Of a DNA stretch of 24,660 nt, positions 1 through 24,093 are shown piece after piece (position 1 is the stretch's first letter; each line of letters opens with the position of its first letter). The notes beneath the pieces are model-generated. The model worked only from the letters and a program-made list of their open reading frames with translations. It ran no database searches and was not told the DNA's origin. The stretch comes from a virus, in the UHGV virus genome UHGV-2140017, one strand, 5' to 3'. Both the position numbers and the translations under genes were made by a program.

Positions 1-333
1 TGCCTCCCGGTAAGTCGCCGCCAGTCCACAGACGACTCGCAATGCGCAAAAAAACATATCAGACTGGCAATGCCCCTCCGCATAGGGGGATTCACCACAC
101 GGATAATTTAGGATGTAGTCATAGGCGGCGTCAATAACTGACACTCTGTCAAAGGCATCATTACGATGCCTTTTGCACAGTGCTAATCACTGGATCTAAT
201 AAGGGGCCAGAGCAAAGCGATTACCCCGGCTACCAGCACGCCATCAGCCAGGATTGACATCATTTGCTGGTGAAGTCGATAGCAACCACCAGAAACAAAA
301 GCACCCCGGCTGCGGCCCAGCGAAGTTTACCGA

Positions 334-12915: not shown

Positions 12916-13146
12916 TTACACCCCTGAAGCGCTATCGTTCTCATTAGCACCCTCGCCATAGAGCAACCAATGAGGATCGCAATGCAGGGCTGAAGACAAT
13001 TCAATGATGTAACGGGGCCTCTTTGTTAAACCCGCCTCGATCGCTTGTAATGACTGCTGGGTCATTCCGACCAATTCAGCCAATTGCGCTTGTGAGAGAT
13101 TCATCTCTTCACGTTTATTCTTTAATCTTTGAGAAATTGATCCCAT
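12916..13146 (-). CDS. cro: Cro-like HTH (XRE-family) repressor
   Basis: 76 aa with LSQAQLAELVGMTQQSLQAIEAG helix-turn-helix; divergent from cI across the operator region; GGAGG RBS. Confidence 0.8.
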   Translation of the reverse strand: MGSISQRLKNKREEMNLSQAQLAELVGMTQQSLQAIEAGLTKRPRYIIELSSALHCDPHWLLYGEGANENDSASGV

Positions 13147-13243: not shown

Positions 13244-13876
13244 ATGAGCCTTGCAGAACGCGTAAAACAAAAAAGAATCGAACTTGGTCTTACTCAAGAG
13301 CAAGCAGCTGAAAAGGCAGGAATAAGGCAACAATCATGGGCCAGCATTGAGGATGGAAAAACTAAAAAGCCTCGCAACATAGTAGGAATAAGCAAAGCAC
13401 TTAAGTGCGACCCAACATGGTTGATGAACGGTGGGCCTTTCATGGCTCTGGCCGATGTGAATTCAAGGAAAGTACCTTTGATCAGTTACGTCCAGGCTGG
13501 GGCGTTAGCAGAAAAACACCCTATTGATGCATTTGATGGTAGCTTCGAATACATCATGACTGACCTTGATATTTCTGAGTTTACTTTTGCACTAAGGATA
13601 GAAGGTGATTCAATGGAGCCTGACTTTAAAGAAGGCGACATTATCATTGTTGATCCCGAGTTAGAGCCCGTTCCGGGCGAGTTTGTTGTTGCTAAAAATG
13701 GTGAAAATGAGGCTACTTTTAAAAAGTACCGTCCTACATTTACCGATATTTCAGGCCGCCAGCAATATGAACTGGTCCCCCTTAATGACGACTACCCCAC
13801 CATTAATAGCTCTGAACGCCCGTTGAAAATTATCGGCGTAATGGTCGAACATAGAATTTACAGGCGAAAAAGGTAA
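13244..13876 (+). CDS. cI: CI-type phage repressor (HTH plus LexA-like S24 peptidase autocleavage domain)
   Basis: N-terminal HTH LTQEQAAEKAGIRQQSWASIEDGKTKKP; C-terminal S24 features (GDSMEP with catalytic Ser, downstream Lys in ATFKKY). GGAGG RBS. Confidence 0.9.
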   Translation: MSLAERVKQKRIELGLTQEQAAEKAGIRQQSWASIEDGKTKKPRNIVGISKALKCDPTWLMNGGPFMALADVNSRKVPLISYVQAGALAEKHPIDAFDGSFEYIMTDLDISEFTFALRIEGDSMEPDFKEGDIIIVDPELEPVPGEFVVAKNGENEATFKKYRPTFTDISGRQQYELVPLNDDYPTINSSERPLKIIGVMVEHRIYRRKR

Positions 13877-13891
13877 ATCCTTCCTCACATG

Positions 13892-13914
13892 AACCGGCCG
13901 GCGCCGGTTTTTTT
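13892..13914 (+). terminator. Intrinsic terminator immediately downstream of cI
   Basis: AACCGGC-CGGC-GCCGGTT hairpin (7 bp) followed by a 7-T run. Confidence 0.7.
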
Positions 13915-13976
13915 ACGTCTTTAGTTTCATAAAAAACAATAAATTACAGTTTTTTTAGTATAGTTCATCACTCAAT

Positions 13977-14019
13977 ACAGTTTTGACTGTTGACTCATTA
14001 ACAGTTTTATCTGTATTAT
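13977..14019 (+). promoter_or_regulatory. OL-type operators overlapping a PL-like promoter directed into the 14123 gene
   Basis: ACAGTTTTGACTGT (13977-13990) and ACAGTTTTATCTGT (14001-14014, identical to the first OR site), overlapping duplicated TTGACT -35 hexamers and a TATTAT -10 candidate (~14014-14019). Confidence 0.65.
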
Positions 14020-14122
14020 TAATCCATCAACAGCGAATAGGCAGGACGCCCACGAAGTAGCCGCCCGGGGCATATGAAGACCGGGATGATTCGCTAACAG
14101 ATAAACCAAATAGGAACAGATC

Positions 14123-14356
14123 ATGGCGAGCAAAGGCATTGAAAACCTTATCAAGGACGCACTAGCAAACGGCTGTCATGTAGTCCGTAAAGCGCATCGC
14201 TTCGAGGTAAGCAAGAAAGGCCAAAAATCAATCACTCTTATTATTTGTGAAGATGGCACAGCTTACCGCGGGGATATTGATCTGACGATAGCCATAGCTA
14301 TTCGCACTCAGAAAGAAATGCGCAGCATCCTCGGCCTGCCGGCCAAGGCAAGTTAA
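14123..14356 (+). CDS. Hypothetical 77-aa protein, first gene of the PL-side transcript (lambda N position, not N-like)
   Basis: ATG with AGGAA RBS ~6 nt upstream. Mildly basic, no arginine-rich motif; no family recognised. Confidence 0.5.
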   Translation: MASKGIENLIKDALANGCHVVRKAHRFEVSKKGQKSITLIICEDGTAYRGDIDLTIAIAIRTQKEMRSILGLPAKAS

Positions 14357-14532
14357 TGACCACAGGTATCTTCGGGAGGGGTTGCGGGGCTGGATTGACC
14401 ACCAGCAACAGAAACTCACCCGACACACAGCAGCCGTTTAGCCCACGGCGTCGGGGGTCCAGTATTCCTGGATTAATACTGTAGGGGTTGAGCCGGTTGG
14501 TCGCCGGCGCCCCGCCCGAAGATACTTGATGC

Positions 14533-14558
14533 AACAAAAAAGCGCCCCATAGGACGCT
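14533..14558 (-). terminator. Intrinsic terminator (minus strand) downstream of the 156-aa gene
   Basis: Minus-strand hairpin AAGCGTCC-TATG-GGGCGCTT (8 bp with one G-U) followed by TTTTTTGTTG, ~30 nt after the stop at 14590. Confidence 0.55.
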
Positions 14559-14589
14559 TCGCTCTTTAACAATCTGGATATCTTTAACA

Positions 14590-15060
14590 TCAGTAACTGG
14601 CTGGAGGTGCAGAGTCTGTATCAAACACATTCTGACAGGAGGGACATCTGCTTTGATTGAAACTCGCATACATACTCACCTGTTGAGGTTGCAGTATGGA
14701 TACTTTATTTGCAGCAAAACAATGTGGACAAAGATGCACGGTTATTTCCGTATCACCCACAATCTGCTTCTTGGAATACACCAGAGAACCAGAATCAAAC
14801 TTATTCAGAACATAGCCTTCGGTTTGGCTTTTGAAGTCTTCAAACTCTGCAATTTTTGCTTTGAGAAGCATTACCTTCTCGTCACGAGAACGGATGGCAT
14901 CACCAAGAGAGAAACATTCAGCTTGGAGGGTGATTAGTTTGTTCTGAAGCTCAATAGTTGCAGCTTTAACTTCAGCATCAGTTTTCGCGTCATTAATGAC
15001 TTTTGCAAGACCCGCAGTCTCCTTTATCGCGGTCATAGCCGCGGATAGTTCAGCTATCAC
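14590..15060 (-). CDS. Hypothetical coiled-coil protein with C-terminal zinc-ribbon, convergent with the PL transcript
   Basis: N-terminal ~90 aa amphipathic coiled coil (KLITLQAECFSLGDAIRSRDEKVMLLKAKIAEFEDFK); C-terminal CPHC-x28-CPSC pairs. Own terminator. Start ambiguous (GTG at 15060 or ATG at 15036). Confidence 0.55.
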   Translation of the reverse strand: MIAELSAAMTAIKETAGLAKVINDAKTDAEVKAATIELQNKLITLQAECFSLGDAIRSRDEKVMLLKAKIAEFEDFKSQTEGYVLNKFDSGSLVYSKKQIVGDTEITVHLCPHCFAANKVSILQPQQVSMYASFNQSRCPSCQNVFDTDSAPPASY

Positions 15061-15893
15061 TATGAATACTCATCATGTTGTTGGGGATATCCAGATTAAC
15101 CGAATCCTTGTTGTTGGGGAATAACCAGGATCCACCTCGCCTGATGTGGGTAAAAGCAGGCACACAACATGAAAGCGCATTCCATCTTCCATCGGTCGTG
15201 GGGACTGGTTTGTAACTGAAGGAGTGCGCTTCCAGTTGTGAACGGCAATATTCGCAACCGTTGTATGGCACATGCAGCGTTAGCGGCCTGAGAGTTCCCT
15301 TGATCCATGCGCTCTCAGAACAACCGGAAATGTGCAAGCTAAGTGTTTCAGGCACGACGTGCGCCCCACCAGCGCGGCGAAAAGGTGTGACGCCCGGGAA
15401 GAGTCCGGGACACAACGATGAGGGCATTGACGAGCAAGGCACAGAGTCTGGTTCGATTCCAGACGCCAGGATAGTTCTATATCTGGTGATGGGCAGGGAA
15501 AAGGTCCGTTCGATTCGGGCACCGGCAGTGCTCTCTTCGTTGTGGTAATTGCGGCTATGCGCACGTGGCGAGCCAACCCGTTCATGGAATGCGTTTCCGG
15601 GCAGTGTACGTCGCCGGTTATGGCTTAACCCGGCAGGTGGAGGCACCACCGCCACAACCTAGTTAACTGTGCTGTGTGTAGTCTTGGCGGTTATCCGTTT
15701 TCCACTATCCAAAGGAGGAAGAGGATAACGTTCTGATGGATAACCGCCCTTTTTACACAATACACAAGAGCATCACCGGGCGACGGGCTCATTACCCAAT
15801 CCACCCGGGCGGCGTCCTAACCGCAGGTGCTCTTCTGTGTTGTGTACGGAGAAATTCCCGGCGGTGGCAGCCGCCTTTCGAGAGGGTAAAACC
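15061..15893. other. ORF-poor, GC-rich, hairpin- and repeat-dense segment (candidate structured ncRNA or long regulatory leader)
   Basis: Only overlapping R/P/S-rich ORFs in all six frames. Contains a tRNA T-arm-like element with a GGTTCGATTCC loop (~15447-15463), an 11-bp perfect inverted repeat followed by T5, several GC hairpins and imperfect direct repeats. Coordinates +/-2 nt. Confidence 0.3.
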
Positions 15894-22087: not shown

Positions 22088-22257
22088 TGAGCTGCCTTCT
22101 CGCAAAAGTCGTTGAGCGCGGCATCTTCCGCATTCCTGCTCGCCGCAAGCGCAAAGCCGAAGTTAAACCTTCCGACATCCCGACCCTGAAAGGCTATACG
22201 GCCCGTCTGGTCGACAAGAAGTGGCTTTGCCTGAGAGCAAGGAGGCAACATGCTTAA
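22087..22257 (+). CDS. ninE: NinE-like small protein (56 aa), absent from the ORF track
   Basis: MSCLLAKVVERGIFRIPARRKRKAEVKPSDIPTLKGYTARLVDKKWLCLRARRQHA; C-terminal half resembles lambda NinE (...[20 protein letters not shown]). TGATG overlap with ninB stop; 8-nt overlap with ninG. Confidence 0.5.
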   Translation: MSCLLAKVVERGIFRIPARRKRKAEVKPSDIPTLKGYTARLVDKKWLCLRARRQHA

Positions 22258-22831
22258 TCGTACTCAGCGCCGCTGCAAAATCTGTCGGGCGAAGTTTACC
22301 GCGACATTTGAGAATCAACGCTGGTGCTGCCCTGAGCATGGCGCTGAATTCGCCATGCAGGAACTGGAGAAGAAGCGCGAAAAGCAGGCCCAGGCAAAAG
22401 CGAAGAAAGAGCGCGCAACCTGGCGCAAGCGCAAAGCCGCGGTGAAACCTCTCAGGCACTGGGAAGATATGACCCAGCGTGTTGTTAACGACTATATCCG
22501 CGAACGAGACCATGATCTGCCGTGCATCAGCTGCGGCACGTTCGACACGGTTCAGTGGGAGGCCGGACACTACCGCTCCCGCGGGAAAGCATCTCACCTG
22601 CGCTACAACGAGGACAACATTCACAAGCAGTGCCATCACTGCAACGTGCAGATGTCAGGTAACCAGCAGCAGTACCGCATCGGCCTGGTAGAGAAAATCG
22701 GCGCTGAGCGCGTCGAGGTCCTCGAAAACAACAACACCCCTCACCGATACACCATCGAAGAACTGGAAGGCATCAGGCGCCATTACAGCGCGCTACGCCG
22801 TGCGCTCATAAAACAACGGGAGGCCGCATGA
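22250..22831 (+). CDS. ninG: NinG (Rap) recombination endonuclease
   Basis: RRCKICRAKFTATFENQRWCCPEHG and ERDHDLPCISCGT...QWEAGHYRSRG...LRYNEDNIHKQCHHCN are colinear with lambda NinG from memory. Confidence 0.85.
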   Translation: MLNRTQRRCKICRAKFTATFENQRWCCPEHGAEFAMQELEKKREKQAQAKAKKERATWRKRKAAVKPLRHWEDMTQRVVNDYIRERDHDLPCISCGTFDTVQWEAGHYRSRGKASHLRYNEDNIHKQCHHCNVQMSGNQQQYRIGLVEKIGAERVEVLENNNTPHRYTIEELEGIRRHYSALRRALIKQREAA

Positions 22832-23267: not shown

Positions 23268-23404
23268 GCCGTGACGTTATCGAACGCATCCGCGACCGCT
23301 GGATAAAGCTTCGCCTTTTACGCAGCAGCGGCACCGTACTGGTTGACTACCGCATCCTCAAGAATTTCGTTCGCATCTATCAGACCCTGGGAGAGAAAGC
23401 ATGA
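23264..23404 (+). CDS. Hypothetical 46-aa protein, absent from the ORF track
   Basis: MSRDVIERIRDRWIKLRLLRSSGTVLVDYRILKNFVRIYQTLGEKA; ATGA overlaps at both ends link it into the ninG-to-Q2 chain. Confidence 0.35.
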   Translation: MSRDVIERIRDRWIKLRLLRSSGTVLVDYRILKNFVRIYQTLGEKA

Positions 23405-24093
23405 TTAACACTCAATACCTCCAGTATGTTCGCCAGCAGCTGATAGTGGCCACCGCCGATCTGAGCGGCGCGACGAAAGGGCAACTGGTAGCCTTTGCTG
23501 AGAATGCTCAATTCGCGGCGACGGCGCGCAGCCGGGGAAGGAAGAAAGTAGCCGATCCGGTCACCGGGCGCATGGTAAACCCATCAAACCCGCCAATCCC
23601 CGGACAGCAGTCCCGCGCGAAAGGTTCCGCAATCGCCCTCGTTATGCCCGTTGAGTACTCGACAGCCAGCTGGCGCCGCGCGCTGCTGTCGCTGGAAGAG
23701 CATCAGAAAGCGTGGCTGCTCTGGAACTACAGCGACAATATCCGCTGGGAGAACCAGGAGACGATCACCCGGTGGGCATGGGAGCAATTCAAAGAAAAGC
23801 TGGCCGGTGTGCGCATTGCAAAGAAAACAGTCGATCGCCTGCGTCAGCTTATCTGGCTGGCGGCGCAGGATGTGAAAGCCGAGCTGGCAGGCCGGGAGAC
23901 TTATGAATACCAAAAGCTTGCTTCTGTGGTCGGCGTGACCCCGAAGAACTGGTCAGAAACGTTTACGGAGCGGTGGGAGGAGATGAAAAGGACCTTGCTG
24001 AGCCTTGATAGCGATTCTCTTTTGCAGGTTACGCGATCACGTTCACAACAAAAGGCGACAAATTTAGACTCAAGTCTTGCAAAACTGGATTAA
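23401..24093 (+). CDS. Putative Q-like late antiterminator (QuuQ-type by position and size), cysteine-free
   Basis: 230-aa W-rich protein in the Q position: after ninB-ninE-ninG, directly upstream of a promoter-like element and a hairpin+T6 terminator. No cysteines, so not a lambda/82/21-type zinc-finger Q. Possible C-terminal HTH (QKLASVVGVTPKNWSETF). Confidence 0.4.
   Translation: MINTQYLQYVRQQLIVATADLSGATKGQLVAFAENAQFAATARSRGRKKVADPVTGRMVNPSNPPIPGQQSRAKGSAIALVMPVEYSTASWRRALLSLEEHQKAWLLWNYSDNIRWENQETITRWAWEQFKEKLAGVRIAKKTVDRLRQLIWLAAQDVKAELAGRETYEYQKLASVVGVTPKNWSETFTERWEEMKRTLLSLDSDSLLQVTRSRSQQKATNLDSSLAKLD

Follow-up and report, generated by a model that had tools for sequence, protein, structure and literature searches.

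Two solutions are known for the left operon of lambdoid phages: the N protein together with nut sites, and put RNA. Lambda-type nutL sites, which lie in the leader of the transcript from the PL promoter, carry boxA and boxB for N. The put RNA forms two side-by-side stem-loops arranged as a V, with no closing helix, and putL takes up the promoter-proximal slot of the PL leader (PMC9378689). Here we analysed a stretch of viral DNA of 24,660 nucleotides, the UHGV virus genome UHGV-2140017 (hereafter the window, by which we mean this whole stretch), in which positions 14026-14122, between a PL-like promoter and its first gene, had been set apart in a preliminary description as a structured leader and a possible nut/put-like element. 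The element occupies the same slot as putL and lambda-type nutL, and its first helix, P1, starts about 6 nt after the predicted start of the transcript. The proposed likeness to nut or put therefore held for position, but by sequence and architecture the element is neither. To all appearances, the nutL/putL slot is taken here by an undescribed RNA family.

Like the putL elements of HK022 and HK639, the element is a structured RNA of about 65-70 nt located directly 3' of PL, in phages that mostly lack N, and it has no evident phage protein partner. It differs from them in being a three-way junction closed by P1, possibly with a pseudoknot, where each putL consists of two open stem-loops. Also unlike put, some of its carriers have nut and N, or boxA, as well. 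With lambda-type nutL it shares the slot and, in its hairpin 1, the sequence GCAGGACGC, which is common to the leader 5' of boxA in lambda and in other N-type phages; it lacks both boxA and boxB, however, and nut sites, when present, lie downstream of it. A further comparison is with the boxA leaders of rrn operons and CRISPR arrays, which it resembles in that a perfect boxA (CGCUCUUUAACAA) is found in the same leader and a long untranslated RNA follows. Here, however, boxA is a separate module, absent from most carriers, and the element has no similarity to rrn boxB or boxC. SfII, SfV and SfIV have no N, and SfI, Sf6 and SfX have it (PMC3851460); SfII, SfV and SfIV carry the element.

Results

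The element is a closed three-way junction

Both of the pairings named in the preliminary description were located as claimed. A perfect inverted repeat of 7 nt, AGCGAAT (14032-14038) and ATTCGCT (14089-14095) with a spacing of 50 nt, encloses a GC-rich hairpin made of CCCGG (14064-14068), 12 nt and CCGGG (14081-14085). The minimum-free-energy fold contains these two helices and, in addition, a GGC-AGGAC-GCC hairpin. Taken singly, the fold is not significant (-20 kcal/mol, z = -0.86), as 40 of 200 shuffled sequences fold as well, and by our own estimate a 7-nt inverted repeat arises by chance in 97 nt about one time in four. The sequence of the window alone is thus insufficient to establish a real structure, and the significance of the fold comes from the comparison across copies.

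Copies were collected in two ways. For the first alignment (A2), an exact 22-mer from the 5' core was searched against viral contigs; 128 instances were found, and 104 distinct copies were aligned. For the second (A3), a degenerate pattern taken from the 3' half only, which left 14039-14056 unconstrained, was searched against one genome per bacterial species and gave 103 matches, 100 of them genuine. In A2, 96% of the cells were paired, as compared to 25-46% when the strands were slid by 1-3 columns, and in A3 the figures were 94.5% and 25-44%; 0 of 500 shuffles did as well in either alignment. The 191 distinct sequences comprise 41 variants of P1 and 27 variants of the second helix, P2, in 76 combinations. 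At least five of the six P1 pairs are kept in 186 of the 191, and at least four of the five P2 pairs in 190. P1 was found as AGCGAA/UUCGCU, GUCAUC/GAUGAC, ACCACC/GGUGGU, AUCGAA/UUCGAU, AACGAA/UUCGUU and other forms, and P2 as CCCGG/CCGGG, CCGAC/GUCGG, CCUGG/CCAGG, CUACC/GGUAG, CCAGC/GCUGG, CCCCA/UGGGG and others. The same three helices were predicted independently by RNAalifold. The preliminary description had proposed that conservation of the pairing be checked across relatives, and the compensatory changes in A2, in A3 and among the 191 distinct sequences bear the pairing out. Together, the pair counts, the slide controls and the helix variants show that the structure is under selection.

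At internal positions of the helices, G.U pairs (35) outnumber A.C mismatches (11), which indicates that the PL-sense strand is the functional strand. This bears on the idea that the conservation concerns DNA only, as a conserved linker at a mosaic recombination boundary or as a protein-binding site. The element does lie at the junction of the immunity module and the variable left-operon modules, with flanks that are unrelated among carriers, but the compensatory changes in 10 base pairs, together with the excess of G.U over A.C, exclude such a role, and we give it next to no credence.

The element is a closed three-way junction of about 64 nt (14032-14095, on the plus strand, as are all features below unless the minus strand is given), and it follows six unpaired bases of the transcript. 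The 5' strand of P1, AGCGAA (14032-14037), pairs with the 3' strand UUCGCU (14090-14095), and changes on both sides were seen in five of the six pairs. Hairpin 1, GGC-AGGAC-GCC (14040-14050), has a near-invariant stem, which stays GGC/GCC even in the set collected with no constraint on the 5' half. Its loop occurs as AGGAC, AGGAA, AGGAU, AUGGA, GGGAC, AAGGAAA and ACGGAUA, and GGA is present in all seven variants. A near-invariant junction follows, CACGAAGUAG-CCG in the window (14051-14063) and CACGAAGUAG-CYG in the family, with substitutions rare in A3. The P2 hairpin (14064-14085) has changes on both sides in all five pairs, and its loop, GGCAUAUGAAGA (14069-14080), has the consensus GGCRUAYGAAnn. 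Between P2 and the 3' strand of P1 lies the junction AUGA (14086-14089), also near-invariant: its U, G and A, which were not part of the pattern used to collect A2, are invariant in A2, and the leading A is kept in at least 90% of copies. The stretches between the helices are thus near-invariant throughout (A, GGC-loop-GCC, CACGAAGUAG-CYG, GGCRUAYGAAnn and AUGA).

Possibly, the fold also includes an H-type pseudoknot of 3 bp, in which GCY just 5' of P2 (G14060, C14061 and C14062 in the window) would pair with GGC, the first three bases of the P2 loop. The third of these pairs is C-G in 129 of the 191 sequences, U-G in 45, U-A in 5, G-C in 4 and unpaired or other in 8; these counts, which come from few independent changes, are suggestive of the pairing.

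The invariant AUG at 14087 opens short frames (14087-14098 in the window; MIR*, MR* and MRWRD* in the window and its homologues), and in 95 of 149 distinct copies the frame has 2-5 codons before its stop, as compared to 26 of 149 in the +2 frame. A leader peptide starting at this AUG was considered and rejected: the AUG has no Shine-Dalgarno sequence and is placed between two helices, and the frame is longer in 36% of the copies. The short frame may follow from the sequence of P1 and its flank, or it may be a mini-ORF (open reading frame, ORF).

Distribution and position of the element

When 13880-14360 was used as a blastn query, conservation was found only at about 14025-14100, with an identity of 85-97%. 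The element is present in 49 phage records, from Escherichia, Shigella, Salmonella, Klebsiella, Citrobacter, Yersinia, Pantoea, Pectobacterium and Enterobacter, and the phages that carry it include SfV, SfII, SfIV, ST64B, ZF40, mEp237, phiNP and YeP1. It was also found in 1862 of 5426 complete E. coli genomes, about a third; in K-12 it lies in the e14 prophage, between ymfK (cohE) and ymfJ. No annotated RefSeq feature lies under the match in the 40 of 1865 records that were among the matches listed. The search of one genome per species revealed prophage carriers in roughly 100 Enterobacterales species, with a core that is near-invariant from Xenorhabdus to Escherichia. Betaproteobacterial matches to the pattern (L159, L174 and L185) score no more than 16.7 bits and, by reading, seemingly fall within a gene on the opposite strand; we regard them as chance matches, and the family is thus confined to Enterobacterales prophages.

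A scan of the whole window with Rfam 15 gave no match to the element at the gathering score. At E<=10, a scan of 13900-14200 returned spurious matches to small nucleolar RNA and osmY models, the best with E=0.55, and no ribozyme or riboswitch model. By eye, the conserved junctions did not fit a hammerhead, a K-turn or a sarcin-ricin-like motif. We found no description of the element in the full-text literature, whose coverage leaves out most subscription journals, so that a prior mention is possible.

The matched copies always lie just downstream of a PL-like promoter, and in copies with good promoters the distance from the end of the -10 box to P1 is 12-15 nt. A cI/LexA-like repressor is encoded by the upstream ORF in 59 of 82 distinct cases, and 193 of 211 copies have a cI-like ORF on their upstream side. 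In annotated examples the element is found 3' of a cI-type repressor, or of exclusion genes inserted behind the repressor, and 5' of the first left-operon gene, which differs between phages. The first ORFs downstream fall into 41 unrelated clusters, which indicates that the element serves the transcript and no particular gene. Moreover, in an all-against-all clustering of 6140 ORFs within 5 kb of the 211 copies, only the cI-like repressor was present in more than about half. Since no family but the repressor co-occurs with the element, there is no candidate for a phage-encoded partner; this, together with a core that is near-invariant across distant hosts, points to a partner in the host.

It could be, as the preliminary description suggested as an alternative, that the fold acts passively at the 5' end of the PL mRNA, either shielding it from decay that depends on the 5' end or setting a cleavage site, and the 5'-proximal position is in line with such a role. 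Protective 5' hairpins, however, need almost no 5' overhang, and about 6 unpaired nt (AUCAAC) precede P1. Nor would a passive stabiliser need more than 35 near-invariant unpaired nucleotides across roughly 100 host species. We consider this explanation unlikely.

The sequence changes immediately after P1 and differs by class, the element being followed by a gene, by boxA or by other RNA domains. In the P1 classes CCACC and GUCAUC (for example L012, L014, L036 and L004) there is a further conserved leader segment, UUAAC-GCGCAGCAGGU..AACGUUCCG, which continues with a hairpin (CGCCAGCCUGGCG and variants) and then AUAAGGCAA; an ORF of about 40 aa, MIDFARKPVRQQAVRLN.IEVLIRKLCYLLAQKG, comes after it. 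No expression platform downstream of P1 is common to the classes. A riboswitch-like aptamer that senses a ligand and gates early-left expression might be thought of, because small aptamers look much like this three-way junction, with its invariant junction nucleotides and its possible pseudoknot. The variable sequence after P1 and the absence of a riboswitch match in Rfam, even at E<=10, make it very unlikely.

The same independence from downstream sequence would suit an RNA that acts in trans or as a decoy, in which a released 5' fragment accumulates and titrates or mimics a host RNA or protein. The fold is compact, autonomous and highly conserved, PL is a strong promoter, and the fragment would be made first, and abundantly, on induction. 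Neither a terminator nor a conserved processing site follows the element, however, and nothing marks a 3' end; furthermore, a role in cis is suggested by the near-fixed distance to the promoter and by how often boxA accompanies the element. A trans-acting RNA thus seems improbable to us.

Relation of the element to nut sites, boxA and N

The leader at 14026-14122 does not contain a boxA (CGCUCUU(U)A), the nearest one being at 14560-14572, nor does it contain a boxB-like hairpin with a GNRA-like pentaloop, as the loop of hairpin 1 is AGGAC and that of P2 has 12 nt. The preliminary description had also stated that no N-like protein is encoded, and we agree: no match to N_peptide or to another N family was found in the 29 ORFs of the window that were scanned, nor by iterative hidden Markov model searches. 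Across the 211 copies, the iterative searches detected an N-like ORF in 10 and not in the other 201. The suggestion that RNA works here in place of N is too simple in view of those 10 copies, which have nut and N, and of the loci that have a boxA. A strict boxA was found downstream on the sense strand at 21 of 126 distinct loci (about 17%), 19 of them within 85 nt of the element; the controls gave 0 upstream on the sense strand and 2 downstream on the antisense strand. With a full nut and N in about 5% of copies and boxA in 17%, the element is not simply a substitute for N.

The Yersinia phage vB_YenM_29.18 has the operators, the promoter and the first 25 nt of the transcript (UCCAUCAACAC-GGCAGGACGCC) of the window. 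It then diverges, and the rest of the element gives way to a boxA (GUGCUCUUUAACA), which is followed by a boxB-like hairpin and by a gene with a match to Pfam N_peptide (E=4e-13). This comparison shows that the element sits in the nutL slot.

Hairpin 1 and the start of the lambda PL transcript

The transcript from lambda PL starts AUCAGCAGGACGCACUGACCACCAUGAAGGUGA-CGCUCUUA, and shares with the element the start AUCA.CAG. We compared the 5' leader of lambda PL (+1 to +33), which lies upstream of nutL, with the element in more detail. The lambda leader begins with AUCAGCAGGACGC where the element has AUCAACAGCGAAUAGGCAGGACGC, shares the nine bases GCAGGACGC of hairpin 1, and continues with CCAUGAAGG where the element has CCACGAAGU. 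It has no P1, P2 or pseudoknot, and at 5.5 bits it is not scored by R1, a covariance model of the element with which the window copy scores 94.7 bits. We know of no function for this first part of the lambda PL leader. The hairpin-1 motif also opens lambda-type PL leaders: GCAGGACGC followed by boxA 12-40 nt later (mostly 21-28) was found in at least 120 viral contigs, of many immunity types. Among the matches listed, all N-type leaders (L234, which is lambda, and L235-L334) start with CCAUCAGCAGGACGC, 42 of 44 distinct spacers form a hairpin whose stem has 4 bp or more and varies in sequence, and the loop of this hairpin contains GGA in 32 of the 44 cases. The loop of the second hairpin of lambda, AUGAA, does not. 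Leaders with GGA-presenting hairpins thus appear to form a wider group at the 5' end of PL transcripts, with the element as its elaborate member.

Hairpins of this kind bring to mind CsrA. A dimer of this protein bound at the 5' end could determine how stable the PL mRNA is, how far it is exposed to Rho or how well it is translated, which would couple lytic early expression to host physiology. The repeat consensus of CsrB is CAGGA(U/C/A)G, two-site binding accommodates a spacing of 10-63 nt, and the flhDC and pgaA leaders are precedents. Measured against this consensus, hairpin 1 shows a CsrB-type CAGGA(C/A/U)G in its loop, near the 5' end, as do the CsrA-binding hairpins of CsrB/CsrC, flhDC and pgaA. 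Its stem is fixed and its loop is variable, yet always with GGA, and in most copies a second GGA (GGAUGA) lies 41 nt downstream, a compatible distance. The N-type leaders, that of lambda included, also start with GCAGGACGC and, in the 32 of 44 cases just given, present GGA in a second hairpin just 5' of boxA. Several observations do not fit, however. In ZF40-type copies the second GGA becomes UAGAUGA by a compensatory change that keeps P2, so that the constraint at this site is on pairing and not on the motif, and two Gs of the second GGA are paired in P2. The GGA hairpin is here part of a larger invariant fold, and binding of CsrA would leave the near-invariant CACGAAGUAG-CYG, the GGCRUAYGAA loop, AUGA and the two covarying helices unexplained. 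The second hairpin of lambda, as mentioned, has no GGA. We found no paper in the literature that links CsrA to PL leaders. Binding by CsrA is thus possible, if rather doubtful, and it is the main rival of the explanation that we favour below.

The immunity region and the leader of the window

The window contains a lambdoid immunity region in an orientation that is mirrored relative to lambda. A cro-like gene (12916-13146, minus strand) is followed by a gene for a cI/LexA-type repressor with helix-turn-helix and Peptidase_S24 domains (13244-13876; HTH_3, and Pfam PF00717 with E=6.6e-22) and by the intrinsic terminator of the repressor gene (13891-13910), an 8-bp stem and then a T run. The PL-like promoter region (13977-14019) has a -35 box at 13990-13995 and a -10 box at 14014-14019. 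The promoter-like site, TTGACT-18-TATTAT (13990-14019), lies just 5' of the element and is overlapped by operator-like repeats of the form ACAGTTTTnnCTGT, namely ACAGTTTTGACTGT (13977-13990) and ACAGTTTTATCTGT (14001-14014). The gene order is that of lambda (cI, OL/PL, first left-operon gene), which makes PL a reasonable name for the promoter. When the two promoters were aligned (TATTAT-taatcc-ATCAAC in the window, GATACT-gagcac-ATCAGC in lambda), the predicted +1 fell on A14026, opposite the A (lambda 35582) that we take to be the start of the lambda PL transcript. The predicted 5' end of the transcript is therefore AUCAAC (14026-14031).

The ATG at 14123, given earlier as the start of the gene behind the leader, does open an ORF, of 77 aa (phrog_12911, 14123-14356), which is inserted between the element and the next conserved leader domain. 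This second structured domain (14361-14531) is closed by GGUAUCUUCGGG and CCCGAAGAUACU, folds at -80.9 kcal/mol (z = -4.4) and has no match in Rfam. Of 168 distinct loci, 11 have this domain, and it starts 8 nt after P1 in 8 of them and 231-273 nt after P1 in the other 3, the window included; in ST64B-type loci it comes directly after the element, and in the window it is displaced by the 77-aa ORF. Next comes a hairpin, GCGCCCCAUAGGACGC, and then the perfect boxA CGCUCUUUAACAA (14560-14572; together 14533-14572). In 19 other distinct loci this hairpin-plus-boxA module is no more than 85 nt away from the element; in the window, the 77-aa ORF and the second structured domain separate the two. 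The convergent gene at 14590-15060 has its canonical terminator in this hairpin, on the minus strand. The recurrence of the module suggests that the untranslated leader is protected by Nus factors, as in leaders of the rrn or CRISPR-array type.

The leader of about 1.5 kb (14357-15837) has no sense-strand gene, and one convergent gene lies inside it. The latter is an ORF of 156 aa (14590-15060, minus strand; phrog_1244) with a weak TerY-C-like metal-binding match. Both the 77-aa and the 156-aa ORF look like morons inserted inside the leader. At 15060-15840 there is a GC-rich stretch of about 780 nt with no credible ORF in any of the six frames and no Rfam match at E<=1. Many Klebsiella phages have a part of it (15162-15432) with an identity of about 92%, and a wider query (14357-15840) matched 139 phage records, among them Stx2c-converting phages. 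The stretch, which lies upstream of YfdP/YfdQ/YfdR-like genes, may represent a large noncoding RNA or else a gene that has decayed.

Elsewhere, the window carries two different Q antiterminator genes. One (PF03589; 3299-4147, minus strand) is at the end of the minus-strand PR operon, and the other (PF06323) is on the plus strand, preceded by NinG, in the features at the right end (22250-22831 and 23401-24093, plus strand). Downstream of the Q gene, an Rfam match to the STnc100 small RNA (1-129, minus strand; 53.6 bits, with a gathering score of 47) is cut by the end of the window. It seems that the window joins a prophage to part of another lambdoid prophage, or that it contains a rearrangement.

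Discussion

We favour, with a probability of roughly 0.35, the explanation that the element is a cis-acting PL leader that engages a conserved host factor and keeps early-left transcription going. Once repression by CI is lifted, the element would be the first RNA to leave the polymerase. The nascent RNA would fold into the junction closed by P1, with the GGA-loop hairpin, the P2 hairpin and probably the small pseudoknot. This fold would be recognised by a conserved component of the host, which might be the elongating RNA polymerase or the Nus machinery, or else a protein that binds the RNA and shields the leader. Such recognition would sustain transcription of a long, poorly translated left operon that is interrupted by morons, and its main effect would be the suppression of premature Rho-dependent termination. 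The element would then work in the manner of nutL or putL and be a member of neither family.

We are led to this explanation by the covarying fold, the promoter-proximal slot, the exchange for nutL in vB_YenM_29.18 and the adjacency of boxA, and also by the 41 downstream clusters, the absence of a co-occurring phage protein, the near-invariant core and the fact that most carriers have no N. In addition, a gene-free leader of about 1.5 kb is the kind of RNA that Rho normally terminates, and the leader of the window would thus need protection. Taken together, the facts call for a function that is bound to the PL transcript, that depends on an exact fold and on about 35 unpaired bases that are fixed, that has a partner throughout the Enterobacterales, and that is compatible with, and often adjacent to, nut and boxA modules. 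The identity of the partner and any effect on elongation are deduced from these features, and antitermination specifically from position; a role in stability or in the binding of a host factor is equally conceivable.

Several observations weigh against the explanation that we favour. Ten of the 211 copies, all of the Xenorhabdus/Photorhabdus class, have the full element followed by a boxA, a boxB-like hairpin (GCGCUGAAAAAGCGC in a Xenorhabdus example, located downstream of the element) and an arginine-rich N-like gene. The presence of nut and N, or of boxA, next to the element would be redundant if the element were a self-sufficient processive antiterminator. Secondly, R1 has no match at E<=10 in the complete genomes of HK022 (L009) and HK639 (L130). 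It has one match in the window; the element is found at one place per phage record and not in the PR operon. Finally, of 83 loci, only 15 have a strict intrinsic terminator on the sense strand in the 2.5 kb that follow, and no strong or convincing one comes after the element in the window. With so few intrinsic terminators, the scan lends no support to antitermination of the classical kind, and any termination that is suppressed would be mostly Rho-dependent, a kind that is not predictable from sequence.

The lack of an R1 match in HK022 and HK639 also bears on whether the element could be a diverged member of the HK022 put family. The slot is the same, the size is similar (about 70 nt) and most carriers have no N. 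The putL elements of the two phages, however, are alike and resemble only each other; their alignment with the element agrees only at scattered columns, and a junction closed by P1 stands against two stem-loops. The window has no copy on the PR side; the put-like annotation in the HK639 record is limited to putL. Membership in the put family is therefore most improbable.

Tentatively, the element could represent an unrecognised class of leader RNA that binds host machinery. It might render the polymerase resistant to termination by itself, as a second, structurally unrelated solution of the put kind, or else the lytic early-left programme might answer, through it, to a global regulator such as CsrA.

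Control of the early operons of lambdoid phages is a founding model of gene regulation. To N with nut sites and to put RNA, the element adds a third conserved RNA module in the same slot of the left operon, one that is far more widespread than put and is present in E. coli K-12. If it acts on elongation, it would be a new natural RNA directed at the polymerase or at Nus factors, and a potential part for synthetic biology; if it binds CsrA or another global regulator, it would link host physiology to the lytic programme. The element provides a testable handle on left-operon expression in lambdoid phages that have no N, such as SfV, SfII, SfIV, ST64B, ZF40 and mEp237, and also on the purpose of the conserved start of the lambda PL transcript.

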